Assembly: GCA_017554565.1 (NCBI GenBank)
Contig: JAFZID010000167.1
Location: 1-55,012 of the forward strand
Source of the DNA: a bacterium
GTDB taxonomy: Bacteria; Auribacterota; UBA3054
Direction: 5' to 3'
Length of the DNA stretch: 55,012 nt
Every line of letters begins with the position of its first letter. Position 1 is the stretch's first letter. Of this stretch, positions 5,803 to 50,513 are shown one piece after another. The translations under genes were made by a program, and so were the position numbers. The notes beneath the pieces were generated by a model. That model searched no databases, was not told where the DNA came from, and was given only the letters and a program-made list of their open reading frames with translations.

Positions 5803-5804
5803 AT

Positions 5805-7649: not shown

Positions 7650-7666
7650 TACTTGGAGTAAATATT

Positions 7667-14081: not shown

Positions 14082-14084
14082 CCG

Positions 14085-15149: not shown

Positions 15150-15272
15150 AAATTCTCCAATCGTTTTAAGGGTATTATACCAACTAATAAGGGTAATATC
15201 AAGCCACAAATTACCCCAATAGTGAAATTGCTACCCTATTTCCGCGAAGAGGCAAGGATTTTTGTTATATCC

Positions 15273-15301
15273 TTGCCAGTGTTCCGCTTTTGTAGTACAA
15301 T
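15273..15301 (+). promoter_or_regulatory. Candidate sigma70-type promoter for the first PEP-CTERM gene
   Basis: TTGCCA (15273-15278), a 17-nt spacer and TACAAT (15296-15301) lie 45 nt upstream of the ATG at 15347. Confidence 0.35.
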
Positions 15302-15346
15302 AATTATCCCGTAAATGTAAATAAATTTCAAAGAGGAAAAATAAAA

Positions 15347-17845: not shown

Positions 17846-17874
17846 ATCCCGACAATCTACCTTTTTTGCTAGCG

Positions 17875-17906
17875 AAAGGCTCCCTCGTTCCGGGGGAGCC
17901 TTTTTA
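17875..17906 (+). terminator. Rho-independent terminator
   Basis: The stem AAAGGCTCCC ... GGGAGCCTTT is followed by a T-run. Confidence 0.7.
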
Positions 17907-17968
17907 TTCCCCTGCTCCGCATTTGCTAAAATATAATGATGTAAATCAACTACCCAAGGGGGAATTAA

Positions 17969-29833: not shown

Positions 29834-29860
29834 CAAAAAAAGAGCCCCGCCAAGCGGGGC
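29834..29860 (-). terminator. Rho-independent terminator after the 126-aa gene
   Basis: The stem GCCCCGC / GCGGGGC (29844-29860) has a CAA loop. A run of 7 T follows on the minus strand. Confidence 0.65.
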
Positions 29861-29887
29861 CCCCCACAAACCAAAAAAACCAACCAA

Positions 29888-30410: not shown

Positions 30411-30539
30411 TCCGCTACCAATTTTAGTAGCGAATGTAATCCTTTTCCCTACAAACTCACTATTTTCGCTAACTTCTATCTATTTTACTAGCTTTTACCA
30501 GATTAGTTAGTCCACTATTACTTTTCTAAATATCGTTAA

Positions 30540-31604
30540 TTATTTGTAAATCTGATCTCTGACAATTTCAACGAACCCTGTTATATCCAAGTAATAGTTT
30601 GGGTAGGCTTCGTTCAGTTGTTTAATAGAAGACACACGAACAAGTACCGCATCTGTTTTATCTTTCTCTCTGGTTTGTTCAATCTCATCATATTTTTTGT
30701 TTGCTTCCAAAAAATCGCTGGATTGATATAAGATAATATTCAACTTTTTTTCTTCGTAATTTAATTTCAAAATAGCATAAGCAGCATTTTTATCAAACTT
30801 TTTATCCTTATTAGCCTGAGTTGCAGACTTCACTCCAGAAAGAAATTCTAGATATTGATTTTTTATATCAAGTTCTTTAATTTCTTTTATAAGCTCTTCT
30901 TTACTAGATGGCGTATTGGGCACACATGGTTGTCCCTCTAAGATAGCAAAGAGAGATGAAACTAAAGCAAAAAAACGTCTAATATCACGTGACCCGCCAC
31001 CAGCTTTTATGGCCTCTCTTTTAAAAGTCCCCATGGTTTCTACGGCGGTTGCCCAAGCATGCTGAAGGCGAGAACGAAACTGAATTTCAATCAGCATGTT
31101 TCTGTTGTAGTCCTCACGTTTATCACTATGATATTTATATACTGCATGTAGACTTCTGTATCCATCTTCTTTTGGGTTCTTTATATAATCTTTAACTCTA
31201 ATTTTGATATGTCGTTTTCGAGATTTATCATATTTCTCGAAATATTCATAAACATTCTCTCCTGGCGGTACAACCATTCTACAACCACCTATGTCCTGCA
31301 TCTCCCATAAACTCATAAATGGCTCCCGCTCTAATTTGTTGATAATAGAGTCCTTTCTTTTTAATCTTTCGGCAACAATTATATTTGATTTGTTCTTAGT
31401 AAATCTTCGCAAGTGAATATAAATAACATGCATTGGAAAAGCGTGAGAGGCGCGCCAATTGTTCAGAACTTTTTCGGATTCTAAATCCAAACATCCTTTT
31501 TTTATATTCCGCCCAGCTTTTAAAATTTGGCCCTTTGAATACTCAAGTTTTTTCCATTTTGGTTGTTGGATTTTTTTCATATAATATTCCTCATCTTTAA
31601 GCAA
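30540..31604 (-). CDS. RelA/SpoT-domain protein (small alarmone synthetase / toxSAS-like) with a ~150-aa C-terminal extension
   Basis: Synthetase-fold motifs are MQDIGGCRMVV, DGYRSLHAVYKY and IEIQFRSRLQHAWATAVE. No HD hydrolase domain is present. Confidence 0.85.
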   Translation of the reverse strand: MLKDEEYYMKKIQQPKWKKLEYSKGQILKAGRNIKKGCLDLESEKVLNNWRASHAFPMHVIYIHLRRFTKNKSNIIVAERLKRKDSIINKLEREPFMSLWEMQDIGGCRMVVPPGENVYEYFEKYDKSRKRHIKIRVKDYIKNPKEDGYRSLHAVYKYHSDKREDYNRNMLIEIQFRSRLQHAWATAVETMGTFKREAIKAGGGSRDIRRFFALVSSLFAILEGQPCVPNTPSSKEELIKEIKELDIKNQYLEFLSGVKSATQANKDKKFDKNAAYAILKLNYEEKKLNIILYQSSDFLEANKKYDEIEQTREKDKTDAVLVRVSSIKQLNEAYPNYYLDITGFVEIVRDQIYK

Positions 31605-31640
31605 AAATTCAATTGTTTAAACGCTATTAAGCAAAATGTG

Positions 31641-32486
31641 TTATAAGCTTTTTTTAAGCTCGCTCATACGTTTTTTCCTTTCCACATGGTTAATTTTGAG
31701 AAAAACTAGTAATAATGTTTGATAGGTTTCATCATACCAATATTCGCGTTCTTCATCACTCATATTAGCCACAGCTTTTTTATAATTTTTGCTGTCTTTC
31801 CCAATATTATTATGGCGAATATTTAGGGTGTTTAGCAAAAATCCAATATCTGACCGGAGCGCCTTACTAATATGTTCAAGTTTTGTTTCGTAATTTTCTA
31901 GTTCAATGGCAAGTGATTCAAGCACTCTTCTTTTACCTTCAAGATTTCCTTTCATGGAGTTATGGTTATATTCCAATAAGAGAGACGACAAATCCTGGTT
32001 AAGTATTTCAGATACAGAAATAGCTGCTTGAGATTTGGGAACGATATGAGTTTCTCCTTCTTTTTCATTACACATATATCCCATTTTTTCTATTACAGTT
32101 AAAACTTGTTTTATATAAAGATCTAATGGTTCTTTCATTCTCTCTCTCCAACGATAAGGAATCTTTGAATCATTAGCATCTCTAGCACCGCATACCAAAT
32201 TATAAGAGTATTCACAAAAAGATAGCAAATAATCAACATCAGCATTGGCCGGAACAGATTCGCCAAAGCATTTTTTGTGGACACTATCGTAATCGGATAA
32301 TGTCAAACAAGTGTCGCGCAAGGTTATTTTCTTAAAGCTCTTAGAAATAAACTCTCTGATGGTGCAATAATCTGTAATATCTACATGGTGCGATTCTTTA
32401 TAAAATATATAGTAAAGTCTTTCATACTCTTTCTTCCAATTGAAAGATGTATCTTTCAAAACTTGAGAAAATGTTTTTCTTTCCAT
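31641..32486 (-). CDS. Hypothetical protein (281 aa) with no recognisable domain
   Basis: A long ORF in the operon's strand and composition. It lies 35 nt after the giant helicase gene and 36 nt before the RelA/SpoT gene. Confidence 0.7.
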   Translation of the reverse strand: MERKTFSQVLKDTSFNWKKEYERLYYIFYKESHHVDITDYCTIREFISKSFKKITLRDTCLTLSDYDSVHKKCFGESVPANADVDYLLSFCEYSYNLVCGARDANDSKIPYRWRERMKEPLDLYIKQVLTVIEKMGYMCNEKEGETHIVPKSQAAISVSEILNQDLSSLLLEYNHNSMKGNLEGKRRVLESLAIELENYETKLEHISKALRSDIGFLLNTLNIRHNNIGKDSKNYKKAVANMSDEEREYWYDETYQTLLLVFLKINHVERKKRMSELKKSL

Positions 32487-32521: not shown

Positions 32522-35500
32522 TCAAAATAAAGATTCGTATCTATATGTGTCTAATCCAGTATTACAGAGTGCAACGAAACCAGGCGAAAATTGCATGACA
32601 TTAAAGAAATGCCAGAATCCGTTCCATTCTTGTTCATATTTATTGGTCCTACTATCTAACCTATCATCGAGCATTGCACAAACAGATATGGGACAATACG
32701 GATCAAACTTGATTTTGTTAAAGGGAACCCCTGCATAAACATTAATATGTGCATCTGTGCCACGAGGGCTCCATGTACCAAATAACGTTTCCAAATAAAC
32801 AAATTCGTCTTCTACAAAATGTACCTGATCATTGATTATCTTTATTTGATTGATCCAAGAATCAAATCCTTCGTTGTTCTGGGTTGCGTTAGGTACTAAT
32901 AAAGATAACGAATAGGCTTTTGCTTGGGCTTGAAATAAATATTCGGCATTATCTAGTTCAAGATACTGCATAAGAAGTTCTAGTGTAGACATCCTATACG
33001 GCTTTAGTTTTTCTGCCTTTAAATAGCCAACAGTCGGATGATAGATATTTGATGGCATCTGTTCAGGAATAAGTGTTGGCGTAGCATAATTACTTTGTAT
33101 AGAGAAAGCCGATTTGACATCATGCCAGCTTAAAACCCAAACCCTATATTTCCCACTTCTCCTAATGGCTTCCCTTTTTAGCGTATCATCAGCGACATTG
33201 TCCTTATGATATTTATAGCCATCAGTGAAAATAGCAACCGGAAGTTTTTTGTCGTTATTTTTTGGTCTGATAATAAAATCTGGCTTACAGGTTACTTTCA
33301 CTCCTTGGGTGTGATCAAGCTTGACTTGAGGTTCTATTTCCCATTCGGCGTCATTAACCTTTAAGTTATAACCCTCTTTTCCATTGATAATGGATTTCTC
33401 TATTTCTACTTTACGACTGCTATTTCCCATCTTTGGAATGGCTGATATAAATAAGCGTTCCAATTCACTGTCAAACAGCGTATTAACAGGGACATCCGCT
33501 AATTTCTTAATCTTAGTCAGCTTATTCTTCCCGCTAAGAATCTTCTTTAGGATGCTAATTGCAGTGTTTCTGGATATGTTTCCAATATTCCGGCTCTGTC
33601 TATAGGCATATAAGCAGTGATAGCATCCATCTTTTTGAGGATCATCCTTGCATGAACAGTCCTCTAATTTTTGAAGGGCTCTTTCTAATATGTCTATCAA
33701 CGAGCCTTCTTGATTCATCAGCTGCTTCAGATACCCTGTTCCGCCAGGGACAGAATCATAGATAACAAGATATTGTTTACTGTAATCAGCATCAGTAACG
33801 GGAACTTCGCTAACAACGGCTCTTAGATGATCGACATTGCCAAAATATTCCTTCATACCTAGCATAAAAGCCGCCGTAAATGATTCTGTCCTGACCTTGG
33901 AAGAATCCAAAGTAGTTGCAGGTATCAGAATACGCAAAGCTTCAGTAGTAAATTCACGATACAAGAATAAGCAGTCTTCATATGGATTTTCTTCGCCAGA
34001 AGGTGATTTTCTTGTTTTGCAATAGAAGGTATGAGCATTATTATTTTGATCTGTTTGAATCTTCCCACAATGTTTACATATCCTAAATCCGTTTCTTACT
34101 TCCTCAACTCCGGAAACCATCAACTTCTCGCCAACCTGAGTTAACTCGCCGAAATTGATGTCACGAAGAGTTGCTTTCTTTACAAACTCATAGCCAAAGG
34201 AAAATTCATCGTTATCCATTTGATAAGCACAGGTAACGTCATTTCCTTCGTCAACGTCAACCAAAAGCTGCTTGCAATAGAAAGTGTTGGTCCTGCCGTC
34301 GCTGTCGTCTGATATCAAGCTATCAGCATACTTCATATTGGAATAGACCATCTGTACCTTTAACATATTCCTAACTTGACCGGCATCTGCCCAGCCAGGG
34401 CTTCCACATCTTGGACAAGTAGCGGTATTTTCGCCGGACACTTCTATTTCAGCATGGGAGCAATTCGGACACAATCTCCATTTTTCAAATTGAGCGCTAG
34501 TCAGATCAACCTGATCAACTTTTAACTTTCTCCCATCCACATAGAAGTTGTTATTGGGAGCAAATTCAGTAAGCGCTATAGAAGCTGATCGTCTATATTC
34601 ATAGGTCGATTTTGAATATTTAGAAGCGCCTTCATCTCCATCATCCTTGCGGTAAAGTACGGCCCTCAATATTATGCCCGATTCGGGGAATGCGTAATTC
34701 GGCAAAAGTCCTTCATCAGAAAGGAAATTAAATATGTCTTTTCTGTTGATTTCTTTTACCACGTTTATAAGAGCGTTTTTCTCGGATTTTAATTCCTTAA
34801 TTTCCTTCTCATATGATGAGTCTTTCGGCTTCTTCTCCAGATCCTTGATCATCATATTAAGCTCTTTAATACTCTTAGAAAGCGAGTCTCTCTGTTTTTT
34901 AAGAGCATTGAACGCTTCCAACACCTGGAGGTGCATCGGGCTTTTAAAATCAACGCCTTTAACAAACTCTTTAAGTTCCTTTTTTGCTATTTCGTCAATA
35001 TAATTGGAAAAAAGCTGAATAAAAGAACTTAAAAGTTGCGTGAGATTATCCTGAACATAGAGCAAAAAGTTAAACGGGAAAGCATCTGCGGGATGAGCAT
35101 CGAGTTTATTAAGCACTAGGCTGACATTCTTCGGAATAGAATCTTCTGTAGCGCCAGCTTTTACCCAGGTGTCCATACAATATGCTACAAATTGACGTTC
35201 AAGCACAGCAGAAGCCTTTAAAAAGATCTTCGGAGATACAACGTTTCCTTCTATCATTTCCAAAGGTTCGGAATAGAAGTACGAATCGTGAGGTTTAGCG
35301 GAAGCAATAGCCAGTGTCAAAGCATTTCCGTCTTTTCGTCCTGCGCGGCCAGTGCGCTGCAAGAATTGCGCTTGTGCAGGAGGAACACTACATAAAACGA
35401 TAGAGGAAAGGTCGCCGATATCAATACCCATTTCAAGCGTAGGCGTACAGCTTAGGACATTAGGATCCCACATTTTTGAAGAATCCTTTTTCCTCTTGAA

Positions 35501-38488
35501 ATCGTATTCAAGCGCTTCTCTGTTCTCCCGCTCCAAAAGACCAGTGTGTTCTCTGGCGTTGATTCTTACAATATCACCGGAAGAGAAAAGTTTTCCGTAG
35601 TAATCAAGTCCTACCGACACATCTTCTTTTAGTTTTCCAGAACATCCTTTTCTCAAACAATGAGCATCTTTCCAAAGAGCCTTGTTATTCTCGGAAACAG
35701 CATAAGTGATTCCACAGGTCTCGCATCTCTCAAAAGATACTTTATCGCTGATAATAACCTTAGATTTATCGATAGCAAAGATGCTGTACTCATCGTTTGC
35801 TTGAATATTAACTACCAATCCGCTCCTCACAAGCTCTTCAATGATAATATTGCAGACAGCACCTGCAGTATCTTCCATTATGATGTCGCTGCACGACAAT
35901 ATCCAAGATACATATTTCTTATCATTAATAGAATCAAACGTTGTTCTCTTCCTGCCTATACCATTCAATTGGTATATAAAGCGCGGAAGATTCCTGCCTG
36001 CCTGCAAGCCAGGAAGCCATTTTTCTTCGCTATTCGACAATAAATACGCTACACCATCATTTCTCAAATACTTTGAGAAACAATCATCATTAAAAGCGCC
36101 ATTTTGAGCCATTATCTTAAGATAACCAGCTACCATTTGAATAAAAGCATCTAATCCAACCTTATCCAAATTTCCAATTTCATTAACAGCTCTTTCATGA
36201 ACAACCTTGCCAACCTCTGAAATCACATCTGTTGGGAATTCCAAGCATGAACAGCCAGATTTTTCCAAAGTTCTACCAATTCTGCTAGCGAGTCCATATT
36301 CAAGCATAATCTCGTAGGATATACGCTTTTCAATATTCTTCATTAACGTTAAGGCTCTTTCATCATCACCAAACTTGCGCCTATTTATCATTTCTTCATA
36401 AGCGCTCATCCATACCATGTTAGGAGCAATAAAGAAACTCACGAAAGTCTCATTATCCCACTTGGCATGATAATATTTGATGAACCCTCTAGTAAAATCA
36501 ACAAAATTTAAACCTGCTCCACCATCTTGAACATATCTTTGAATAGCACTTCTAAGTCCAAATCTCCAAGTTCTAGCATTGAAAAAGCCCGCTCTATGCG
36601 CAGCATCTTGAACATTATCGGAAAAAGCCAATAACTTCTTATCATCGTTGAACTTCGAGGCAAAAATCTGTGATATTTCAGTACTGATCTCTGTTGCGCT
36701 CCTTAGACCCATTAGAGATAGGCCCCTCTTAGATCCGCAGAAGGGACAAACATATTGCTTAATATCTTGAGAGCCGCTTCTGGTTCGTTCTGGGGTTGCT
36801 ATGATAATATCTATCATCTCTGTACCGCAACTGTCACAGAGATTAGATTCTCTTTCAGCAGTTTGAACTTTAAGACAGTTAGGACATATACGACCATGAT
36901 CAGTCCTTCCGGGATGATCTTCATGATTATGAGGAAACATCATTACAACCTGTTCATCAGCATTGAAAAATAGATTATAAAAGGTTTCCAATTTCGTTAA
37001 AGTAGCGTTACGATGTTCATCCAATATAGATGTCCAGCCTGTTGCGCCACATTCCCTGCAGTTAACAACCGGTAAATAGTATTTAACCTGTTGTTCATTG
37101 AGATCATTAGCCAAGGCATAAGAAATCTCCTTACCAGATACCTTAGCCAACAATCTTCTAAGTTCCCTAATCCACAATTGTATTTGAACATTTAAGAAGG
37201 GACGCAACTTTTCAGGCTTTCCGGTACGCGCATGAGAAATCAAGGCAAGCAAAGCATTAACTGCTGCTTCAGCATCCTTAATTTCACCTAAAGCAGGATA
37301 TTCTGTTTTTAACGCTTCAATTATTGTGCTTACTTGGTAATATTTCCCTTTGATTAGACCTATCATTGATTGCATAAAGCTATGATGCATCAAATGATTC
37401 CCTAATTCTATCCTCCCTTCTGGCGTTAATATATCAACGCCATGCAAATTAGTCCAAGCAACAGCAGCTTCTTTTAGATATTCTTTTTCACTATCCTGAT
37501 CAACAAGGTTATTCAAACGAGCAATTTGATCAATCGTCGGAAAAGTCTTATCAGTTATTTCTTGCCCAGAAAAGAATTCTTCAGGACTTAATCTATCCTC
37601 AGTTACAACTGCATCTTCATCAAAAGGCTCTCCAAATACCTCTTCGGCATACTCCAATATATTCTCTTCATTCTCTTTTGATCCCATTGTAGCTGAAGTG
37701 CCAATACAGCAGATATGCTTTTCAGGAGTTGCCAATCTTGATTTAAGTCTTCTTAGCAAGCAGGCCAGATCTGTTCCTTGCGCTCCATCAAAGGTATGGA
37801 ATTCATCCACCGCCACAAACTTCAAAGTTTCTGGACCATTGTCTTTCCAAAGCTTAGCATCCTTCGGACGAACTAAAAGATAATCCAGCATCTTATAGTT
37901 CGTCATAAGGATATCCGGCGGATTAGACAACATTATTTCTCTGTCGGTAATCACCTTATCAGCTGTCATAACTTGATTAGGAACCAGTTCGAATCCACCC
38001 ACATACATTCCAGCCGTAACATTACCACGCAATTCAGGACTATTCCAAATCAATTCCGCAATACGTTTAGCCTGGTCTGAAGCCAAGGCATTCATAGGAT
38101 AAATAATCAGGGCTTTAATGCCTTTCTCTCCTCTGTGCCTATAGCAATACTCCAATATCGGATACAAGAAGCATTCTGTTTTACCAGAGCCAGTACCAGT
38201 AGCAATCAGAGTTGAACGACTGTCCTCTCCTGTCAATCTCTCAAAAGCAATCTGTTGATGCACATAAGGAAGATAAGCCGGATGTATCGCAGTAAAGCAC
38301 TTAGGCATCTCACTAGCAACGCGGAAAGGAAGGCGTACTGAGATATAAGGATCGTGATAAACAGCGTCCTTAGTTTCAAGCATCTTACGAATAGAACCAC
38401 GGAATGGTTCGTTCGTCATCGGAAAGGTCGTCTCTATATAATCAGAGATACCTTTCTCTAGTTGTTTTGCTAGTATTGATGGTAACAT
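32522..38488 (-). CDS. Giant (1988 aa) DEAD/DEAH-box helicase fused to a DUF1998-type zinc module and a C-terminal PD-(D/E)xK-like domain (DrmA+DrmB-like)
   Basis: Walker A is ATGTGSGKTE (aa about 97) and the DExH box is VDEFHTFDG (aa about 228). Motif VI QRTGRAGRKDG lies at aa about 1043. Cys clusters are CPNC...CPRC (about 1340), CKHC (about 1468) and GCYHCLYAYRQSRN (about 1619). PDFIIRP...VAIFTDGYKYHKD lies at about 1733-1765. Confidence 0.9.
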   Translation of the reverse strand: MLPSILAKQLEKGISDYIETTFPMTNEPFRGSIRKMLETKDAVYHDPYISVRLPFRVASEMPKCFTAIHPAYLPYVHQQIAFERLTGEDSRSTLIATGTGSGKTECFLYPILEYCYRHRGEKGIKALIIYPMNALASDQAKRIAELIWNSPELRGNVTAGMYVGGFELVPNQVMTADKVITDREIMLSNPPDILMTNYKMLDYLLVRPKDAKLWKDNGPETLKFVAVDEFHTFDGAQGTDLACLLRRLKSRLATPEKHICCIGTSATMGSKENEENILEYAEEVFGEPFDEDAVVTEDRLSPEEFFSGQEITDKTFPTIDQIARLNNLVDQDSEKEYLKEAAVAWTNLHGVDILTPEGRIELGNHLMHHSFMQSMIGLIKGKYYQVSTIIEALKTEYPALGEIKDAEAAVNALLALISHARTGKPEKLRPFLNVQIQLWIRELRRLLAKVSGKEISYALANDLNEQQVKYYLPVVNCRECGATGWTSILDEHRNATLTKLETFYNLFFNADEQVVMMFPHNHEDHPGRTDHGRICPNCLKVQTAERESNLCDSCGTEMIDIIIATPERTRSGSQDIKQYVCPFCGSKRGLSLMGLRSATEISTEISQIFASKFNDDKKLLAFSDNVQDAAHRAGFFNARTWRFGLRSAIQRYVQDGGAGLNFVDFTRGFIKYYHAKWDNETFVSFFIAPNMVWMSAYEEMINRRKFGDDERALTLMKNIEKRISYEIMLEYGLASRIGRTLEKSGCSCLEFPTDVISEVGKVVHERAVNEIGNLDKVGLDAFIQMVAGYLKIMAQNGAFNDDCFSKYLRNDGVAYLLSNSEEKWLPGLQAGRNLPRFIYQLNGIGRKRTTFDSINDKKYVSWILSCSDIIMEDTAGAVCNIIIEELVRSGLVVNIQANDEYSIFAIDKSKVIISDKVSFERCETCGITYAVSENNKALWKDAHCLRKGCSGKLKEDVSVGLDYYGKLFSSGDIVRINAREHTGLLERENREALEYDFKRKKDSSKMWDPNVLSCTPTLEMGIDIGDLSSIVLCSVPPAQAQFLQRTGRAGRKDGNALTLAIASAKPHDSYFYSEPLEMIEGNVVSPKIFLKASAVLERQFVAYCMDTWVKAGATEDSIPKNVSLVLNKLDAHPADAFPFNFLLYVQDNLTQLLSSFIQLFSNYIDEIAKKELKEFVKGVDFKSPMHLQVLEAFNALKKQRDSLSKSIKELNMMIKDLEKKPKDSSYEKEIKELKSEKNALINVVKEINRKDIFNFLSDEGLLPNYAFPESGIILRAVLYRKDDGDEGASKYSKSTYEYRRSASIALTEFAPNNNFYVDGRKLKVDQVDLTSAQFEKWRLCPNCSHAEIEVSGENTATCPRCGSPGWADAGQVRNMLKVQMVYSNMKYADSLISDDSDGRTNTFYCKQLLVDVDEGNDVTCAYQMDNDEFSFGYEFVKKATLRDINFGELTQVGEKLMVSGVEEVRNGFRICKHCGKIQTDQNNNAHTFYCKTRKSPSGEENPYEDCLFLYREFTTEALRILIPATTLDSSKVRTESFTAAFMLGMKEYFGNVDHLRAVVSEVPVTDADYSKQYLVIYDSVPGGTGYLKQLMNQEGSLIDILERALQKLEDCSCKDDPQKDGCYHCLYAYRQSRNIGNISRNTAISILKKILSGKNKLTKIKKLADVPVNTLFDSELERLFISAIPKMGNSSRKVEIEKSIINGKEGYNLKVNDAEWEIEPQVKLDHTQGVKVTCKPDFIIRPKNNDKKLPVAIFTDGYKYHKDNVADDTLKREAIRRSGKYRVWVLSWHDVKSAFSIQSNYATPTLIPEQMPSNIYHPTVGYLKAEKLKPYRMSTLELLMQYLELDNAEYLFQAQAKAYSLSLLVPNATQNNEGFDSWINQIKIINDQVHFVEDEFVYLETLFGTWSPRGTDAHINVYAGVPFNKIKFDPYCPISVCAMLDDRLDSRTNKYEQEWNGFWHFFNVMQFSPGFVALCNTGLDTYRYESLF

Positions 38489-38509: not shown

Positions 38510-39637
38510 TTATTTTCTAAAATACTGTTCACTAACTTTTCTAAAAAGTGAATTCTTAACCAGATATAAATTTCCCTTTGTTCTAGTTAATGCAACATAA
38601 AGTTTATTTACAGTTGATATCGGAATACCATCAACCGAAAAATCATCTTTATCAAGACTTTCAAAATTATCTGTAAGTATGACACAAACTTCATTAAAGG
38701 TATCACCTTTCGAATATGACCAATTCATAGAATTAAACGAAAACCTTTCGGAATCTCTAAATACAAGTTTTAGCAAAGAACGATTATCTAAATAACTAAT
38801 TAATTTTTCTTCATCCTCTATCCATAAAACATTACCATTATTTTTCCCATCAGATTCAATATTAATTCCTAATTTCTCTTTTACAAAAGAACAAACATTA
38901 TCTGAACATCTTCTCGACTTATTTAAAGATGTATCATCAATTTTGAAATGTAGTTTTTTAAGCTCTTTAACAAAATCAGCATAAGTAACATCCGTCTTGC
39001 CGGCTTTAAAAGGTTTCCCAGAATTATTAATTGCGGATACTGAATGTTGATAATAATCACCGACAAGAAGAATATTATTTAAAATATAAGAAATAGAAAT
39101 TATAAGTTCAAAATCAAATTCTCTGAAATCTTGAAATTCATCTATAAGAACTTTATCAAAAAATAAATTTAATCTGTTTGTAGCTCGTTTTAATATTTTG
39201 TTCTTCTTAGCATCCATAAACATAATCATTTCTGATAACCTAGAACAGTAATAATAACCAAACTGGTCAACATAATGTCCAAAACAATCCTTATTAATGT
39301 AATATGGATTATGAAAACATCTTCCACCTTTCTTAATTATATTAGGAGGAGGACTTGAGGTAGTTATACCTTTAATCAAAAAAGTATCACATTTAAAAAA
39401 AGTTTTAATTGTGGGTTCATACGGGCATACAAAAAACCTATAAACAAATGCATCAAATGTCAATATTGTAGTTTTTGTTGGAATACAACCATAGGCAATC
39501 AATAGTTCTTTTCGAATATTATGAATATTTTCGTGCGTAAAGGCTAGGATAAGATTTCTCTCACCCAAATTAATAGAATGACAAATAAAATAGGTTTTTC
39601 CTGCGCCTGCAACAGCTAAATTTATTTGCTTATCCAT
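38510..39637 (-). CDS. Short UvrD/PcrA/Rep-like SF1 helicase (GajB-like)
   Basis: Motif I is AVAGAGKTY and motif II is VLIDEFQDF. It also has GDYYQ, SRRCS and motif VI YVALTRTKGNLYLV. The start overlaps the upstream OLD gene by 16 nt. Confidence 0.8.
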   Translation of the reverse strand: MDKQINLAVAGAGKTYFICHSINLGERNLILAFTHENIHNIRKELLIAYGCIPTKTTILTFDAFVYRFFVCPYEPTIKTFFKCDTFLIKGITTSSPPPNIIKKGGRCFHNPYYINKDCFGHYVDQFGYYYCSRLSEMIMFMDAKKNKILKRATNRLNLFFDKVLIDEFQDFREFDFELIISISYILNNILLVGDYYQHSVSAINNSGKPFKAGKTDVTYADFVKELKKLHFKIDDTSLNKSRRCSDNVCSFVKEKLGINIESDGKNNGNVLWIEDEEKLISYLDNRSLLKLVFRDSERFSFNSMNWSYSKGDTFNEVCVILTDNFESLDKDDFSVDGIPISTVNKLYVALTRTKGNLYLVKNSLFRKVSEQYFRK

Positions 39638-41211
39638 TCTATAGCATCCTCAACATATTTTGGTATTAAAAATTTTTCCTCAGACAATAGCATTTTATAT
39701 GCTGAATCAACTTTATTATTAAGCATTTTTCCAAGAACTGGGTCTTGATCATAATCTTTATCATGATATTTGTAATTAGCTCCAGACTTAACTTCAATTA
39801 TATTTTCAAGTAAATTTTTATTGTTATTATAAATGCATACTTCCCAAGTAAATTCATTTAAATCCTCTGGAATAAATATTCTTTGTAATTTCCTTCCTTC
39901 ATCCTTGTTAAATGAATCAGCATCATCTAATTTGCTCTTTTTACCATCATTATCTGTTATCACAGCTATCTTTTTATTTAGGCAGTTCACAGTTCTTAGA
40001 TAGTTCTTATAAGAAATTCCGTTGCAAGAGATAACGGAAATTTCATCAGCATCAATCGTTCTGCCTGTTTGAAGTTTATAAAAATAAGGAATTAACATAT
40101 ATTCTGTAGCTCCCTCGACCAAAATTACTTTTTTAGATAATAAGAATTGTAAAAATGAATTGTCATCAGCTTTAACAAAGAAATCAGCCACATCATTATC
40201 AACAGATTCTAGCGATACAGACTCAAAATCGTTTATCCAAATAACATGTTTAAGATTAAGTCGGCTTGTAATTAAATTGCTATGCGTCGTAACAATAATT
40301 TGAGAATCATCTTTTTTATTGGAAATTTCATGTAACATTTTTATCAATGTTGTATAGCTTAAATGATTTTCTGGTTCCTCAATCAAAATTACATCAAGGT
40401 TGTTTTTCTTATTTAAAGCTATTTGAGTTTTGATCAAGCTCTCCATACCACTACCACGATTTTCAAGTGATATAGATTCTTCGTAAACAGATAAAATGGT
40501 ATCTAAAACAACTTTTTTGCTATCGACTCCAAATTTTCTTCTTTCATCAATATCCGGAAGCTCTATTTCTTTAAATGCTTCTTCTAGTTTATCTCGGAAA
40601 ATATTTTTGGCTCTTTGACGTTCTTTATCATCATATTTACTATTAAATAAAGATTTATTAAAGTAGCTAAAAGAAGGATAGCCGAAATTAGTTGTATCAA
40701 TTGATATGAAATTTAGTGGACGTTTAATTAATTGATATGGCCTATTAGCAAAAGTCGTCCAAGACATTTCATAATACTCGTATGGAATTTTTCCCTGAGA
40801 TATAAATTCATTTAAGCCTTCTCCGATATCATCATTAAATTTACATTCAAATCGTATGCCATATTTTTCTTCTTGTGAAATTTGTTTACCATAAACTTCT
40901 CCAAAAAAATATTCAGCGTTTTTATTATCCTTTTCAAGATTAAATTCAATTTCAATTAAAATTTTTGGAAGAGTCTTAACACTAGGATTATCTTTAAATT
41001 CATTAACACAAGTCACGTTAAATAAATCACACAATATTGACTTATCAGAACTCCTATATTGTTGATTTAAGACAACCTTTATTGCTTCTAAAATAGTACT
41101 TTTCCCCGACTCGTTTTCTCCAACAAGAATATTCATACTTTCATTGAAATTAATCTGAAAATCTTTGAATTTCTTGAATCCATTTATTGTCAAACTTTTA
41201 ATATGATTCAT
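39622..41211 (-). CDS. OLD-family ATP-dependent nuclease: ABC-type ATPase plus Toprim (GajA-like, class 2 OLD)
   Basis: Walker A is VGENESGKST and Walker B is VILIEEPENHL, followed by VTTHS. Toprim elements are VILVEGATEY (Glu) and VITDNDG (DxD). Confidence 0.85.
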   Translation of the reverse strand: MNHIKSLTINGFKKFKDFQINFNESMNILVGENESGKSTILEAIKVVLNQQYRSSDKSILCDLFNVTCVNEFKDNPSVKTLPKILIEIEFNLEKDNKNAEYFFGEVYGKQISQEEKYGIRFECKFNDDIGEGLNEFISQGKIPYEYYEMSWTTFANRPYQLIKRPLNFISIDTTNFGYPSFSYFNKSLFNSKYDDKERQRAKNIFRDKLEEAFKEIELPDIDERRKFGVDSKKVVLDTILSVYEESISLENRGSGMESLIKTQIALNKKNNLDVILIEEPENHLSYTTLIKMLHEISNKKDDSQIIVTTHSNLITSRLNLKHVIWINDFESVSLESVDNDVADFFVKADDNSFLQFLLSKKVILVEGATEYMLIPYFYKLQTGRTIDADEISVISCNGISYKNYLRTVNCLNKKIAVITDNDGKKSKLDDADSFNKDEGRKLQRIFIPEDLNEFTWEVCIYNNNKNLLENIIEVKSGANYKYHDKDYDQDPVLGKMLNNKVDSAYKMLLSEEKFLIPKYVEDAIEWISK

Positions 41212-41222
41212 AATAGTGTCTC

Positions 41223-44200
41223 CTATATTTTTCCATATTTATCTTCAAAGAATTTCCATGCCGTTTCATAATCCTTTTCTCGATCGCATCTATCAAAAGG
41301 TGCAATGTATTCAATCGTACGTTCAACTGGACCTCCAGGCATAGTATCATCCGTTACAGTACGATAAAATTTTTCACCTGCTGGAGCCCCTTTTTTCCCA
41401 TTTTCCCATTCTTGACGAGAATAACCAACACCTGTTAAACTGCGATTGTTAGTGAAAACTATGCGGCCATTTGCATCGTACCAGGTATCTGATTCATACT
41501 CTTTAAGTATATAAAATTGGCTTTGATAAATAGAAATAAGTTGTTTAAGAGATATACCCAAAGCCATTGCAACAAGAACATCAATTTCTATTAACGCTTG
41601 TCTGCGTTCAAAATCAGTACGAAGAGGACAATTCTTATCCCACTTTGATGATAAAGAAAGGAAATGATCATTGCTAAGTCTGCTATCTATTTTAGCCCAT
41701 TTTCTTTCCCTAAAGGTATTGTGCCAACATTCTTCCCATAATTTTGAATAATGACTTGTTAAGCAATTTAAGACAAGAGCAATACAAGATGCTTCAAGAA
41801 TTTTATCATTATTTATAAAAGGAAGAGGCCTTAATAAACCAATCCCACCAGAATTCTTACCTGTACATTTAATATAAAAATCATAGGGCAATGATGATAA
41901 TAACGATTCAACAAAAGGTAGTTTATTTATGTGTTTAAATCCTATTTCTAAGACGGCATGTACATGTCCGATTTTTGGTGAAAGTATTGCAGGAACTAGT
42001 GTTCTTTCTCCGCCTTGTCCAAGCATATTTCGCATAAAAATACGATAATTTAAATAAGATTTTTCTCCCCAAGGAGTAATTGGAGCTCTGTTATCATATT
42101 CGGTAATATCACATTTAGGGCTATAATTACAACGCTGTAAATAATCATCTGGAATTATAGTTAAATCAATATTGTCATAATCGCTATTCAATCTACACAC
42201 TCTTCTGGAAGCTTTAAACAATGGATTAGAAACCAGAATATGCGGACCAGAGATAATTAGATCTATCGCTGAGTTTGGAAAATGAACATTCCTTTTTATG
42301 GTTCCGTCATTTTGCCTATTAGTTTCGTGCCACATCTCAGAAACAGATATCTCATCAAACATCTTCCCTAAATTAACTTCTTGATTTGCAAAACACTGCA
42401 AAACATCAACATATAGCATTTCGTGTATAACGGGTAGTCGAGCAGTTTCCCATTTCGAACTATTGTCAAATATATTTGCAAAAATAGTTAGTTCTTTTTT
42501 TGATACATGTACTATTCTATTTGGATGTCCTTTAGTACACCATCCATTTTCATCTTTTATTCCAGGTACTGGCAATATAGGATCTCCATCATAACATTCC
42601 TCTATAGTGCTAGGAATATAAAGATTGCTAATAGAGTCAAATTGAGGTAAGTCAAGTGGACCACCATACACATTCAAACTGAATGTAGTATGGTGGTGCA
42701 CTTCGGGAAAAAGTTTACGCTCGTTCGCAAACATAAAATGCTTGCGAAGACGCGGATATAATTTTTCTCGAAGTGCACCACCCTGAGGATCGTCATATAC
42801 ACCCTCAGGGTGAATGAACGCACTAACACCTTGGCTAGTATTAAATTGCCATGCCTGAGGCAAAAAACATTTAAACAAGTTAGTTTGTTGTCCCTTAAGA
42901 TCAATATAATTATGCTCAGAATTCAAAAAAGCTTGTTCTCCAGATAATGATTCGTATTCTGAAAAATACATCTTTTTTGAAGTTTCCGATTCTAAGGCAT
43001 CATTACGAAAATTAGTTGTTTCACTTGCAGTTAATCTTTTAACAGCAAACATTGGTTGAATATCGGAAAGCATTCCCTGCTCGTTCCATTCAATTTTAAT
43101 CCAGGGCGGATTTCCAATAATTAAATCAAATCCTCCATGTTCAGCAAAAAGATCAGCAAACTCAAGCTCCCAATGCATAAAATGATTTTGTTCTGCTATC
43201 TTTTTAACTAGCGCTAATCTTGGGTAAAGGGTGCAGAGTTCTTCGAGATCTACTTGTTTAATATTCTCTTCTTCTGACTCGGCTTCTGGTTGATCTTCGC
43301 TAAACAAATCACCTTGCGTTCCTTTTTGTGTTTTAGGTCTTGAAATTTCTTCCCCAAACAAATCTCCTTGTTTTCCCTGCTTGGATTGAGTGCCCATAAC
43401 ACCACGCAGAATCATATCCATATCTTGGATAAATTCTTGTCTGGTGGGTAGAAGATTGGCTTCAGTGATTGGCCAGAACCAGAGGGCGCACCAGTAGTCC
43501 ATAGCAAATTTGAGTCTTGCGTATGCTCCTGCGTTCTTAGCTCTCTCTGACTTATAGATGTTGGAAAGGTATTTGTCTTTCTCTCGGATAGTCAGATGAT
43601 TATCTTTACGAGAGTCATGTTGACCGTAAATATCAAGAGAGGTTATCGTTTCTCTTTCGAGCAATTGCCTGTCTGAGACTTGCTGTTTCCAGAGAACATC
43701 TACTACTTTTGATAGCTCAATTAGTGAATTGAATTCTTGTTCGGAGTACTTCTTTATAAAATCTTTGTTCCAGTTTTTCATTAGCCTGATATTCTCAGGC
43801 TCCAAATCTTTTATGACCCTGTCTGTATATTTGCACATACCTGGATCACCGGTAAGGAAATGATAGACCTGGAATCTGGAACGAGCGATGTTTCTTCCGC
43901 TGGCATCTAATTTAGTAAAGGGAATACGTTCAGGAGCATTTTCGTACCAGCGTTTTCCGTTTTCTGATGTGGTTAGCTGATTCTTATGATAGACCTGGCG
44001 TCTAGCTCCTATAAGGGAGTTGCCGTTTACTAGCTGTGTTCCGAACCAAGGAACATAGCCGCCTTCGTAAATAGTGTTGAGCCAGAGTGAGACTTCAGCT
44101 AGCTCTACAGCAACAGGGTTAAGGTCAATGCCATAAACGTTGTTGTCGGCAATATACATTTTGACCTTCTGGAGTTCCTGTAAGCGTTTATCGGCAGGGA

Positions 44201-46037
44201 TCAGCTCTCCTTTTTCTTCTTGTTTTTTGTTCAGATAGGCTTCCGCAAGCTGATTGATAGCCTCGTTCAAGAAGGCTGCACTTCCCATAGCTGGTTCGCA
44301 AACCTTAAGATTAAGGATCTCGTCTGCAGTTTTATCCTGTAGTAATTCCTTCAGAGCATATTTGACTAGACACTTTGTTAGAACTTCAGGCGTATAGTAG
44401 GAAGCTGATTTTTCTCTTTCTCTACCCGCCAATCGATAGATAAACGTGCCTTTCTCATATTTTCTGAGATCTCCTTGCCTATATCTTCCATCTGGATCAT
44501 CTCTATCATAGCGGACTCGCTCGGCTTCGGTATATTGTTCGAGTTCTTCTTCAGCTACAAAATAGCCTACGTCTAGCTCATTGAAAGTGTCGCCGGCTTT
44601 TTTGACCTCAAAGAGAGTGTGTTCAGCTATAAATCCCCTATATGAAAGCAAAGCTTCATATACGGCGCCTAACTGGTTGATACCGAGGTTTGCGTAGGAA
44701 ATACGTCCGCGTCTGGAGTTCCTTCTTCCTGTTTCTCTGGTCAAGCTCATGAGATCAATGATTCTGAGCATAACCTTGTTGCGTATCTTAGACTCTGAAA
44801 TCATTTTCGTATATTCAGGATCAAAGATATGCGCCTTTAGGGGAGAGATTAAGAACATGTCATGAAGACTCTCTTCTTTGGAATACTTGATGAGATCTTC
44901 TTCCTTTTTAGGATAACCATTGTAAATAAGGTCATAGAGCTTAGAGAGGGACTCGTGAAGATAAAAACCTTCTCCAACTTCAGTAACGTCGTCTCGTACG
45001 CTGTCAGCAATGTCTCTAAGACTTTCCAGGGAATATCCTGTCAGATAAGATTGAGCCTTAATAGGGGCGTAGCCCAGTTCCGGACGCGATTCAATGAACA
45101 ACATGAAAAGCATACGATACATATAGCGCAGACATTCAATAGTAAGCTGTCCGGCATCGACAGGATCAGTTTCAAAGTTCCTGCCGAGACGATGCTTCAT
45201 GTCGTAAAGGACTTCATTACCTAAAAGCTCAATGCACTCTCTAAGGGCGTATTTAAGATCCTGGGAAACGCCGGCTGCGTGCCTTTGAGAATTGGCGTCT
45301 AATTGATCTATAAGACTTGTCCCGTCTTCTGGGCAGAGACTGTCTTTATGAAGAAGGACCGCCATTGCCTGAAGAGTGGATTCTTCATGACGGCTGAATA
45401 TATCCTCTAGTTCGAATTGGAGAAAACGCTTTTCGTTCCACTTATTTCTATCGATCAGCGCGATCTGATTCATCCCTATAAGGATTACAAATCTCGGAGG
45501 CTCGGCTTGGCCAAAAAAGATTTTCGTTACAAGATCTTCATTTGTGATTGTGGTTAAGCAATTTGACGGAACACTATTTTGGCCTTCTTCACCTATGTCA
45601 TTAATAGAAAAACAATATTTATCAAGGATAGAGGATTCTTTGTCTTCAGAAGCAGCTAATAAAACCCAAAGAGCCGGAGCACCGTTAGCTTTTTTTATTT
45701 CAAGATAAACTGGTGCTTTCGTATCATCATCGATCTGTATCCATTCAGGTGAGGCAGAAGGATAATTTAAAGAAGAAAGATAAAGATCGGCTAAACTACG
45801 GATGTTTGAAACTGTTTGGGTGTCAAATCTTGATCTTAAATAACGATCGTGAATCGTGTAATACTGTCTTGCGCAGTCTCTAAGACGAGACCAGGGCGTT
45901 TTTACTCCTTCCCCTTCCTTAGCTTCAGCTCTCCACTTAGAAATAGTTTCAGAAGCATTCTCCTCAAAAATAGAGGAGAAGTAATGATTCGTATAATATT
46001 CGTTCTGGTTAGTAATACCAGTTAAATCCATGCTCAT
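41223..46037 (-). CDS. Very large (1604 aa) Eco57I-type N6-adenine DNA methyltransferase (DrmMI-like)
   Basis: SAM motif I is VCEPAMGSAAFLNEAI (aa about 578), followed by YGIDLNPVAVELAEVSLWL. Catalytic motif IV is IIGNPPWIKIEW (aa about 973). I see no nuclease motif. Confidence 0.9.
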   Translation of the reverse strand: MSMDLTGITNQNEYYTNHYFSSIFEENASETISKWRAEAKEGEGVKTPWSRLRDCARQYYTIHDRYLRSRFDTQTVSNIRSLADLYLSSLNYPSASPEWIQIDDDTKAPVYLEIKKANGAPALWVLLAASEDKESSILDKYCFSINDIGEEGQNSVPSNCLTTITNEDLVTKIFFGQAEPPRFVILIGMNQIALIDRNKWNEKRFLQFELEDIFSRHEESTLQAMAVLLHKDSLCPEDGTSLIDQLDANSQRHAAGVSQDLKYALRECIELLGNEVLYDMKHRLGRNFETDPVDAGQLTIECLRYMYRMLFMLFIESRPELGYAPIKAQSYLTGYSLESLRDIADSVRDDVTEVGEGFYLHESLSKLYDLIYNGYPKKEEDLIKYSKEESLHDMFLISPLKAHIFDPEYTKMISESKIRNKVMLRIIDLMSLTRETGRRNSRRGRISYANLGINQLGAVYEALLSYRGFIAEHTLFEVKKAGDTFNELDVGYFVAEEELEQYTEAERVRYDRDDPDGRYRQGDLRKYEKGTFIYRLAGREREKSASYYTPEVLTKCLVKYALKELLQDKTADEILNLKVCEPAMGSAAFLNEAINQLAEAYLNKKQEEKGELIPADKRLQELQKVKMYIADNNVYGIDLNPVAVELAEVSLWLNTIYEGGYVPWFGTQLVNGNSLIGARRQVYHKNQLTTSENGKRWYENAPERIPFTKLDASGRNIARSRFQVYHFLTGDPGMCKYTDRVIKDLEPENIRLMKNWNKDFIKKYSEQEFNSLIELSKVVDVLWKQQVSDRQLLERETITSLDIYGQHDSRKDNHLTIREKDKYLSNIYKSERAKNAGAYARLKFAMDYWCALWFWPITEANLLPTRQEFIQDMDMILRGVMGTQSKQGKQGDLFGEEISRPKTQKGTQGDLFSEDQPEAESEEENIKQVDLEELCTLYPRLALVKKIAEQNHFMHWELEFADLFAEHGGFDLIIGNPPWIKIEWNEQGMLSDIQPMFAVKRLTASETTNFRNDALESETSKKMYFSEYESLSGEQAFLNSEHNYIDLKGQQTNLFKCFLPQAWQFNTSQGVSAFIHPEGVYDDPQGGALREKLYPRLRKHFMFANERKLFPEVHHHTTFSLNVYGGPLDLPQFDSISNLYIPSTIEECYDGDPILPVPGIKDENGWCTKGHPNRIVHVSKKELTIFANIFDNSSKWETARLPVIHEMLYVDVLQCFANQEVNLGKMFDEISVSEMWHETNRQNDGTIKRNVHFPNSAIDLIISGPHILVSNPLFKASRRVCRLNSDYDNIDLTIIPDDYLQRCNYSPKCDITEYDNRAPITPWGEKSYLNYRIFMRNMLGQGGERTLVPAILSPKIGHVHAVLEIGFKHINKLPFVESLLSSLPYDFYIKCTGKNSGGIGLLRPLPFINNDKILEASCIALVLNCLTSHYSKLWEECWHNTFRERKWAKIDSRLSNDHFLSLSSKWDKNCPLRTDFERRQALIEIDVLVAMALGISLKQLISIYQSQFYILKEYESDTWYDANGRIVFTNNRSLTGVGYSRQEWENGKKGAPAGEKFYRTVTDDTMPGGPVERTIEYIAPFDRCDREKDYETAWKFFEDKYGKI

Positions 46038-49217: not shown

Positions 49218-50513
49218 TTAAAGTCCCAACATCTCTTTAGCTTCTGCGTGACCTTGTTCAGCAGCTTTCTTAAGCCAAAATGTTGCTTGTTCTGGATCGG
49301 GATCTATGCCTTTGCCGTAATAATAAGCAAGGCCCAGGGCGAATTGTGCACTGGCATAGCCTTGCTCGGCGGATTTTGTAAACCATTCTACGGCTGTTTT
49401 ATCGTCGCCAATCGAATCATAGTATACTCCCAAGCCGTACTGGGCCATGCTGTTTCCATCTTCTGCGGCGGCGGTAAAAAGTTCTTTAGCTTTCTCGAGA
49501 TCTTGCGGTACTCCTTTTCCGACCATATAGCAAGCGCCTAAATTATACCTTCCAAAAGAGTCGCCAAGATATGCTGCTTTCTTAAACCATTCAACAGCTT
49601 TTTCATCGTTGTTCAATTTAGTATAAAGTTTTCCTAAAGCGTTTTGGGCGCCAGAAAGTCCCTGTTCCGCCGCTTTTGTGTACCATTCCTTGGCTTTATC
49701 GTAATCTTGCGGTACACCGTTTCCATTTTCATAACAATCCCCGAGGGCATACGCTGCGTTCAAATTGCCCTGGCTTGCAGATTTGGAAAACAACTCCACG
49801 GCCTTTTTGAAATCTTGCGGCACACCTTTGCCGAAATAATAAAAATTACCTAATGAGACCTGTGCGTTTGATTCGCCTTGTTCTGATGCTTTTGTGTAGT
49901 ATTCTATAGCTTTTTCGTAATTTTGCGGGGATCCTTCACCAAATTCGTATTGTAGTCCTAAAATATATTGTGCTTCATCATCTCCTTGATTTGCAGCATT
50001 GATAAAATATTCTGTGGATTTAGCGAACAGCTCGTCTGCTTTTTTAGAATCTTGCGATACACCAATTCCTATTGCATAACAGTAGCCTAAATTGTGCTGT
50101 GATTTAGCATCTCCTTTTTCAGCTCCTTTTTTGTAGTATTCAACAGCTTTTTCGTAATCTTTTGGCACACCAACTCCAAAAATATAAAAATCGCCGATAC
50201 TTTCATAGGCAGGAGCGTATCCTTGCTCAGCCGCCTTTGAATATAATTCAAAAGCCTTCTTGAGATCTTGAGAAACACCTCTTCCGCGCGCATAACGTTT
50301 AGCCAAATTATATATGGCCGGAGCGTATCCTTGTTTGGCAGCCTTTTCAAAATATTTAAAAGCTAAATTGTCATCAGCTGCTTTAACCCCGAGCTGATTG
50401 TATCGTTCCGGAGTGTTATTGATGAAGCGCAAAAATAAAAACGTACACACGATCATTACCGAGATAATGATAAGTACGGCTATTATGTTTTTGGATGATG
50501 CGTTGGGTTTCAT
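49218..50513 (-). CDS. Membrane-anchored Sel1-like (SLR/TPR-family) repeat protein
   Basis: An N-terminal TM helix is followed by about 10 tandem ~36-aa units of the form A..WY.KAAEQG...AQ..LG.CY..G.GV.QD..KA. Confidence 0.9.
   Translation of the reverse strand: MKPNASSKNIIAVLIIISVMIVCTFLFLRFINNTPERYNQLGVKAADDNLAFKYFEKAAKQGYAPAIYNLAKRYARGRGVSQDLKKAFELYSKAAEQGYAPAYESIGDFYIFGVGVPKDYEKAVEYYKKGAEKGDAKSQHNLGYCYAIGIGVSQDSKKADELFAKSTEYFINAANQGDDEAQYILGLQYEFGEGSPQNYEKAIEYYTKASEQGESNAQVSLGNFYYFGKGVPQDFKKAVELFSKSASQGNLNAAYALGDCYENGNGVPQDYDKAKEWYTKAAEQGLSGAQNALGKLYTKLNNDEKAVEWFKKAAYLGDSFGRYNLGACYMVGKGVPQDLEKAKELFTAAAEDGNSMAQYGLGVYYDSIGDDKTAVEWFTKSAEQGYASAQFALGLAYYYGKGIDPDPEQATFWLKKAAEQGHAEAKEMLGL

Follow-up and report, generated by a model that had tools for sequence, protein, structure and literature searches.

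The open reading frame (ORF) at positions 32522..38488 on the minus strand of the DNA analyzed here (contig JAFZID010000167.1 of assembly GCA_017554565.1, Auribacterota UBA3054, positions 1 to 55,012; hereafter the window, 55,012 nucleotides in all) is, at a probability that we place near 85%, ArmC, which serves an ARMADA type II anti-phage system as its effector helicase-nuclease. In the description of September 2025 (Bell et al.; PMC12458937), ARMADA is related to DISARM and has a YprA-family helicase that lies closest to the one of Druantia, and ArmC has appeared in print as “resembling fused DrmABC” and as carrying a “non-PLD nuclease” (10.1101/2025.09.22.677730). The single-chain architecture has been in the literature since that date and is not itself new. 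What is new is an ArmC lineage, in an ARMADA type II-derived locus, that lacks ArmD, lacks the C-terminal tail of ArmC and swaps cargo genes. The arm genes of the window are as follows.

armA, 46037..48853, minus strand: SNF2/BrxHII-like helicase, 938 amino acids (aa)
armB, 41223..46037, minus strand: PglX/type IIG-like N6-adenine methyltransferase, 1604 aa, NPPW at 976
armC, 32522..38488, minus strand: 1988-aa YprA/MrfA-family DExH helicase-nuclease, tail-less allele

The armC frame is one uninterrupted ORF of 1988 codons, read from 38488 to 32522 with no internal stop, while the plus-strand translation of the same interval is full of stops, and its product is identical to NCBI MBR5902083.1. 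The initial annotation of this ORF had allowed that a frameshift or assembly error might conceal two or three genes. Nothing of the kind was seen: the identical 1988-aa protein is encoded on three contigs with the same neighbors, and four further alleles from independent assemblies, 96-97% identical, end at the same place. An assembly chimera was ruled out, as the same junction recurs across independent assemblies and alleles. The giant ORF is real and intact, and no artifact of frameshift or assembly. The initial annotation was silent on the strand, the operon partners ArmA and ArmB, the embedded Gabija pair, the absent C-terminal tail and the absent ArmD.

In a BLASTP comparison with ArmC of E. 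coli ARMADA II, the window protein aligned colinearly over aa 1-1969 at 36% identity and 1301 bits. The reference E. coli locus is arranged as published, druE-armA-armB-armC-armD by tRNA-Phe; in the window, armC is the fifth gene of a tightly packed, co-directional minus-strand block that reads, 5' to 3', armA, armB, a gajA-gajB cargo pair and armC. ArmA is 46% identical to E. coli ArmA over its full length, and ArmB is 43% identical to E. coli ArmB with the NPPW motif conserved, such that an ArmC orthologue, an upstream SNF2 ArmA and an NPPW-bearing ArmB encoded between armA and armC, three of the features by which ARMADA II is recognized, are in place. Profile searches assigned ArmA to DrmD (PADLOC, 2e-97; NCBIfam, 339 bits) and to Pfam SNF2-rel_dom and Helicase_C, ArmB to type IIG (PADLOC, 3e-253) and DrmMI as well as to Pfam Eco57I and N6_Mtase, and the large helicase to DruE1 (PADLOC, 5e-115) and DruE3 (3e-104). 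PADLOC-DB 2023 is older than ARMADA and so holds no ArmC model, and this mixture of DruE, DrmD and type IIG/DrmMI calls is the ARMADA signature. The E. coli proteins (NCTC 12900, ATCC 8739, EDL933; PMC12458937) share with the window ArmC the Walker A/B motifs, the zinc clusters, the MZB domain, the PDF...FxDG...H nuclease motif, the NGFW..N..QF motif and the preceding ArmA-ArmB order. The window ArmC differs in lacking a tail of ~115 aa, in having no armD after it and in the Gabija pair inserted between armB and armC, and its host, unlike E. coli, is an uncultured bacterium from gut and rumen-type metagenomes. Closer relatives, at 62-72% identity, are abundant in gut and rumen metagenomes and metagenome-assembled genomes (MAGs), mostly of Bacillota, and lie in loci of the order armA-armB-(slot)-armC-armD.

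The PADLOC calls on the helicase, and the fact that, of the solved structures, E. coli DruE (9TU7) comes nearest, would also fit DruE of Druantia (type I or III), that is, a large helicase acting with Dru partners. The initial annotation had offered this relationship as an alternative, and it did name the closest solved relative; however, no Druantia partner gene is present. Beside armC there is no homologue of druA-D, druH, druM, druF or druG, the neighbors being ArmA, ArmB, GajA, GajB, orf281 and PDC-S33. Similarity to E. coli DruE is patchy at 129-186 bits (129 bits for the DruE of the reference ARMADA locus itself), against the 1301 bits obtained end to end with ArmC. DruE of Druantia type III-A (E. 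coli EDL933; PDB 9TU7-9TUC) shares the YprA/MrfA-type core and aligns by sequence in RecA1, in RecA2 and the following helical region, and in MZB. It too has a large zinc-rich insertion before RecA2, but the two insertions do not align by sequence, and DruE works with DruH rather than with an SNF2 helicase and a methylase. Further, DruE ends in two PLD domains, whereas the window protein has no PLD domain and ends in a Vsr-like nuclease and a C-terminal domain. A Druantia assignment is thus extremely unlikely.

The initial annotation had leaned toward DISARM, with DrmA, DrmB and a nuclease collapsed into one gene, and this proposal draws some strength from the matches of ArmA to DrmD and of ArmB to DrmMI and from the published account of ARMADA as DISARM-related with an ArmC likened to a DrmABC fusion (10.1101/2025.09.22.677730). 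DISARM class 1 (DrmD, DrmMI, DrmA, DrmB, DrmC) likewise combines SNF2, N6-adenine methylase, DExH, DUF1998 and nuclease functions. However, it divides the helicase, DUF1998 module and PLD nuclease among three proteins, its DrmA core is distant and its nuclease has a PLD rather than a PD-(D/E)xK fold, while the window encodes a single polypeptide in which Pfam finds no PLD domain. Compared with the strong DruE profile match, DrmA profiles match just around the helicase motifs (PADLOC, 4e-18; NCBIfam, 17.7 bits against a cut-off of 999), and the NCBIfam DrmD score of ArmA falls under its cut-off of 610. In the published phylogeny ArmC falls with Druantia and away from DrmA (PMC12458937). At least 830 representative clusters of one family share the whole architecture, which argues against a local fusion event; the long insertion, the zinc clusters, the fused MZB and the non-PLD nuclease are ArmC family traits, as they are shared by the relatives in armA-armB-(slot)-armC-armD loci. 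With E. coli ArmC aligning end to end, the collapsed-DISARM proposal did not hold, and we consider it very unlikely. Within the ArmC reading, the domains of the window protein are laid out from N- to C-terminus as listed here, all on the minus strand.

RecA1 lobe, aa 77-272, 37673..38260, minus strand: Walker A GTGSGKT (K103), DEFH (D228); Pfam DEAD
Insertion of ~685 aa between motif III and the RecA2 motifs, aa 291-974, 35567..37618, minus strand: three 4-Cys clusters
RecA2 C-terminal motifs, aa 975-1052, 35333..35566, minus strand: Pfam Helicase_C; motif VI QRTGRAGR at 1044-1051
Helical, coiled-coil-like region, aa ~1100-1270, 34679..35191, minus strand: colinear with E. coli ArmC
OB/connector region, aa ~1271-1550, 33839..34678, minus strand: two Zn ribbons; domain names taken from the literature
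MZB/DUF1998 zinc domain, aa 1551-1634, 33587..33838, minus strand: Pfam PF09369; C1611, C1613, C1622, C1625
Vsr-like PD-(D/E)xK nuclease domain, aa 1673-1799, 33092..33472, minus strand: candidate catalytic residues E1677, D1737, T1755/D1756, H1761
C-terminal helical and alpha/beta domain, aa ~1815-1980, 32549..33046, minus strand: conserved motif EWNGFWxFxNxMQF

The helicase motifs are split by a long insertion, as first described, with Walker A (GTGSGKT, 98-104), DEFH (228-231) and QRTGRAGR all within 1-2 residues of the positions originally given; TSAT lies at 264-267. Pfam DEAD (82 bits, 4e-23), Helicase_C and PF09369 all exceed their curated cut-offs, and the protein combines a DExH SF2 core with a C-terminal four-Cys MZB/DUF1998 domain, the combination that delimits the YprA/MrfA family. 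Among PDB sequences it matches DruE 9TU7 (7e-54) and MrfA 6ZNP (1.4e-18), and at the sequence level RecA1 aligns with DruE residues 89-317, the RecA2 segment with 1093-1190 and the MZB segment with the DruE MZB at 1612-1719. MrfA/YprA of B. subtilis, the founding family member, shares the DExH core and an OB-connector-MZB canopy; however, it has 751 aa, lacks both the zinc-rich insertion and a fused nuclease, and serves repair and not defense. K103 and D228 align to K110 and D234 of E. coli ArmC, the mutation of either of which abolishes defense (PMC12458937).

The insertion is colinear with that of E. coli ArmC and holds Cys clusters at 477/480/535/538, 551/554/581/584 and 922/925/944/949, which had not been listed before; a Pfam search of aa 291-974 gave no match. 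In ArmC and DruE this region has been assigned BrxA/WH-like (winged-helix), double zinc-binding beta-barrel and MarR-like/duplex-binding domains (PMC12458937; 10.64898/2026.05.13.724758). A weak coiled-coil-type Pfam match covers aa 1185-1237, and the part following RecA2 may correspond to the helix-turn-helix-like domain with a coiled-coil finger of the published account (PMC12458937). Past motif VI, the three Cys clusters that had been noted are found at C1340/1343/1358/1361 and C1471/1474/1490/1506, the two Zn ribbons of the OB/connector region, and at C1611/1613/1622/1625. The DruE1 profile scores best over aa 910-1660. The DUF1998 module was upheld by Pfam, as PF09369 matches aa 1551-1626 with 48.4 bits against a cut-off of 24.2; GCYHCLYAYRQSRN lies within it at aa 1621-1634. 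The ~220 residues reported to follow the last motif were counted at 225 and hold the domain at aa ~1815-1980, which is conserved in E. coli ArmC and is modeled by AlphaFold2 (AF2) with a predicted local distance difference test score (pLDDT) of about 81-97. For this domain no significant PDB fold or profile match was found. Extra C-terminal domains have been labeled EEP/Vsr (“inactivated Vsr/EEP”) in the published work; these labels were not reproduced in our fold and hhalign comparisons, and hhalign of the aa 1800-1978 domain and of the lost tail against the Vsr-like domain gave no similarity.

The nuclease domain is probably an active PD-(D/E)xK enzyme of Vsr-like type, a reading that conservation supports well and that the fold comparisons do not prove. 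The replacement of PLD by a Vsr/DUF559-like nuclease had been proposed at the outset, and it finds backing in a conserved motif, in an hhalign pairing with the Vsr core and in matches to restriction-endonuclease folds, none of these lines being decisive alone. Both sequence blocks first reported are present, PDFIIRP at aa 1736-1742 and VAIFTDGYKYHKD at aa 1751-1763; the gap between them is 8 aa and not the ~14 aa given earlier, and D1737 and D1756 stand 19 aa apart. Across 153 aligned ArmC-type domains, mostly library representatives clustered at 50% identity, E1677, Q1721, D1737, D1756, G1757, H1761, D1768 and R1772 show no or almost no variation. The hhalign profile comparison with E. coli Vsr 42-71 (probability 42%, E 2.7e-4) pairs D1737/T1755/H1761 with Vsr D51/T63/H69. 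The AF2 model of the domain alone (pLDDT 84.6) has a restriction-endonuclease-like strand order, its best Foldseek matches being TnsA, I-Bth0305I, BsoBI, AF1548 and VRR_NUC, with DUF559 and “very-short-patch-repair endonuclease” entries in the viral library. A profile of aa 1640-1988 found no match among PDB sequences, and a profile of the Vsr-like domain searched against 1.84 billion representatives returned solely ArmC-type proteins among the 150 matches listed, with no bridge to Vsr or DUF559. Relative to Vsr, DUF559 and REase_MTES_1575, the catalytic core motif aligns, but similarity is confined to ~30 residues and Vsr H64 is replaced by D1756; the ArmC domain is a family of its own.

The window locus departs from its relatives at the 3' end of armC. 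Almost all relatives are ~2100-2110 aa long, and the window ArmC stops ~115 aa earlier, exactly at the linker preceding a conserved tail domain (GYEL..GEV.AE.ELAW..K.G....GW) that is found even in E. coli ArmC. The tail is detectable in 48 of 51 near-full-length representative ArmCs, just one being clearly tail-less; Pfam has no match to the tails of P0004 and E. coli. ArmD, a GajB-like UvrD helicase with a RelE-like N-terminus, is published as following armC directly “almost always” in ARMADA II, and extra domains C-terminal to the ArmC nuclease as occurring “often, not invariably.” In 52 of the 53 related GTDB loci with sufficient downstream flank, armD directly follows armC; in the window, orf281 and a PDC-S33 gene occupy its place. 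The sole exception (L005) is an independent truncation at the same linker. The L005 interval (10001-19466), from a Selenomonadales MAG, encodes a tail-less ArmC of 2013 aa without armD, followed by a 1103-aa ORF with no Pfam family. In the window, tblastn with the tail revealed no remnant and none encoded downstream, and tblastn with two ArmD proteins gave no match, which argues for a clean replacement and not a frameshift. The co-loss of tail and ArmD is compatible with one adjacent deletion, and the position of the two independent truncations, in one and the same linker between domains, hints that ArmC faces ArmD through its tail.

The truncated form represents a lineage rather than an accident. 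The 90% cluster of the window ArmC holds five full-length alleles, 96-97% identical and ending at aa 1987-1992, all without armD, and every contig that reaches the flanks shares one chromosomal site, between an Flg_new_2 surface protein and an RND efflux operon. Among the five armC alleles, the pairwise Nei-Gojobori ratio of nonsynonymous to synonymous divergence (dN/dS) is 0.063 at a dS of 0.21, and by domain it nowhere exceeds 0.14 (Vsr-like, 0.07; last domain, 0.14). Given this ratio, selection has kept the protein intact since the truncation, which is real and old. A decayed ARMADA II locus (L096:154-16308) looks unlike the window: its armA retains just 393 aa, and the SLFN/HATPase cargo, armC (1974-aa and 112-aa ORFs) and armD (153-aa and 507-aa ORFs) are each broken up.

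Several points weigh against the reading of this locus as a working ARMADA II system with an ArmC helicase-nuclease. To our knowledge, biochemical activity has been demonstrated for no ArmC. In one study, DruE reportedly could do without its C-terminal PLD nuclease domains in defense, and the fused nuclease thus need not be the killing step. The Foldseek matches of the nuclease domain reach a best E of 0.024 in the PDB and 0.0036 in the viral library, with none below 0.001; E. coli Vsr structures are absent among the 50 PDB Foldseek matches listed; the two-domain model (aa 1640-1988) has a best E of 0.57 against the PDB; and Pfam REase_MTES_1575 stays sub-threshold, matching just 4 of 17 members. 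The domain names used for the insertion are labels from the literature and do not derive from this sequence. ArmD could be encoded elsewhere in the genome, the present view being 55 kb. Finally, ArmD is essential for plasmid-borne E. coli ARMADA II (PMC12458937), and a locus without it may therefore be impaired. Taken to its conclusion, this last point would make the locus a crippled remnant, in which the system was inactivated when armC lost its 3' end and armD was deleted, the rest of its genes being in decay, as the near-universal retention of armD (52/53 loci) and of the tail (48/51 proteins) among relatives might also suggest. However, the 4530 codons of armA, armB and armC are undisrupted and keep the catalytic motifs, the armC ORF persists in five diverged alleles under the constraint given above, and the decaying L096 locus differs in having several genes split or truncated. 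In addition, an armD deletion mutant of enterohemorrhagic E. coli was less affected than other arm mutants (10.1101/2025.09.22.677730). A dead remnant is disfavored by the selection data, and we hold it to be unlikely.

Returning to the intact ARMADA II-derived locus, two cassettes flank armC in the window.

Cassette 1, slot between armB and armC, 38510..41211, minus strand: gajA and a short gajB
gajA, 39622-41211, minus strand: OLD-type ATPase-TOPRIM, 529 aa; PADLOC GajA 1e-87
gajB, 38510-39637, minus strand: short UvrD-like helicase, 375 aa; PADLOC GajB 5e-39
Cassette 2, usual place of armD, 30540..32486, minus strand: orf281 and the PDC-S33 gene
orf281, 31641-32486, minus strand: 281 aa; no family in Pfam, PADLOC or NCBIfam
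PDC-S33 gene, 30540-31604, minus strand: 354 aa, RelA/SpoT domain; full-length PADLOC PDC-S33 3e-112, Pfam RelA_SpoT

The first cassette is a Gabija pair by profile coverage (GajA, residues 3-526 of a 532-position profile; GajB, 1-360 of 369), with Pfam AAA_15 and OLD-like_TOPRIM in GajA, and the second is possibly a defense pair of small-alarmone-synthetase type. Host genes have a guanine-cytosine (GC) content of 50-57%, the arm genes one of 39-41% and the cargo one of 28-34% (gajA-gajB, 28%; orf281 and PDC-S33, 32-34%). By blastn between alleles, armA and the first two thirds of armB are 89-95% identical, and armC is 94-95% identical exactly from start codon to stop. The slot between armB and armC is unrelated between alleles, as is the DNA past armC until a 126-aa ORF and the efflux genes, homology of sister strains with the window resuming at 30497, 30315 or 29698. 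DNA on both sides of armC has been exchanged between near-identical strains. The last third of armB is ~70-73% identical or unalignable (window 41226-~42800, ArmB aa ~1080-1604) and looks like a swapped target-recognition module, likely one that confers specificity. The contents of the two positions in the tail-less strains are these.

Window (L084): slot, GajA and short GajB (Gabija); downstream of armC, orf281 and PDC-S33
L086-L088: slot, SduA (Shedu); downstream of armC, Abi_C and a 228-aa ORF
L089-L091: slot, uncharacterized 676-aa and 103-aa ORFs; downstream of armC, SLFN_AlbA_2, AAA_15/21 ATPase and ASCH
L092-L094: slot, uncharacterized 676-aa and 103-aa ORFs; downstream of armC, 168-aa and 527-aa ORFs
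L093: slot with additional 179-aa and 667-aa ORFs; armB split
L095: slot, SMODS-like and DUF6602; downstream of armC, a 669-aa ORF

Members of the family generally have this cargo slot between armB and armC. It is empty in 19 of 60 related loci and elsewhere holds Gabija (five loci), GmrSD-like, CBASS-type SMODS, SLFN/AlbA_2-HATPase, SNF2/ResIII helicase or NOV_C/Sacsin-type genes; in the accessible parts of the ARMADA literature we found no mention of it. An additional scenario may be considered in which cargo has taken over the role of ArmD, either the short UvrD-like GajB of the slot or the genes at the former armD place. ArmD is itself GajB-like, the GajA-GajB pair lies directly upstream of armC, and all tail-less alleles carry some cargo at both positions. 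However, GajB matches ArmD at the Walker B motif only (E 5e-4), the same GajAB pair occurs in five relatives that retain armD, and the low GC content of the cargo relative to the arm genes suggests independent cassettes. The slot genes of the sister tail-less strains (Shedu, SMODS-like or uncharacterized) include none that is UvrD-like, and GajB as a general substitute for ArmD was rejected on that ground. Replacement of ArmD by cargo is, on balance, quite unlikely.

For the ArmD-less ARMADA II locus itself, a working model may be proposed in which ArmC, by analogy with DruE, probably loads on exposed single-stranded DNA or forked phage DNA and translocates or unwinds 3'->5' on ATP, using an OB/MZB “lid” and a zinc-rich duplex platform; DruE has been characterized as a 3'-5' helicase that requires its OBZ and MZB domains (10.64898/2026.05.13.724758). 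The C-terminal Vsr-like domain would then probably nick or cut DNA, as Vsr does, and ArmA and ArmB would probably supply remodeling and methylation-based self-marking, as in DISARM and BREX, with the strain-variable C-terminal third of ArmB setting sequence specificity. ARMADA II defends directly, without abortive infection (PMC12458937), and the system here most likely would work as a three-gene core without ArmD. We tentatively extend this to a detachable module of tail and ArmD, the loss of which leaves a core that still defends, with the two armC junctions as recombination hot spots at which unrelated defense cassettes are swapped and with some cassettes that might plug into ArmC functionally; we consider this extension unlikely.

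Elsewhere in the window, a Sel1-repeat protein with 11 repeats (49218-50513, minus strand; weak local PtuA match, 1.6e-9) is encoded immediately upstream of armA, and the Flg_new_2 protein near it is the conserved left flank of the island. After the 126-aa ORF, a strong terminator-like hairpin (29839-29865, minus strand) has 12 pairs, 8 of them G-C, followed by a T run; in a scan for promoters and terminators, counts were no better than in shuffled sequence, and this hairpin (29865-29839) alone stood out, as the one convincing terminator downstream of the block. Five consecutive large plus-strand ORFs at 3691-14081 (703, 614, 602, 800 and 736 aa) have no Pfam match at E <= 1e-5 and are followed at 15347-20398 by two beta-helix-repeat proteins.

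The locus has consequences for annotation, as PADLOC-type tools call “DruE,” “DrmD,” “type IIG RM” (restriction-modification) and “Gabija” and not one ARMADA locus with cargo. The two cargo slots indicate that a defense operon can itself serve as an integration scaffold for other defense genes, and target specificity may be set by the part of ArmB that varies between strains, its C-terminal third. A lineage under strong purifying selection that has lost ArmD and the tail alike is a ready-made genetic experiment, and it suggests joint action of the two and an ARMADA II that may be able to do without them.

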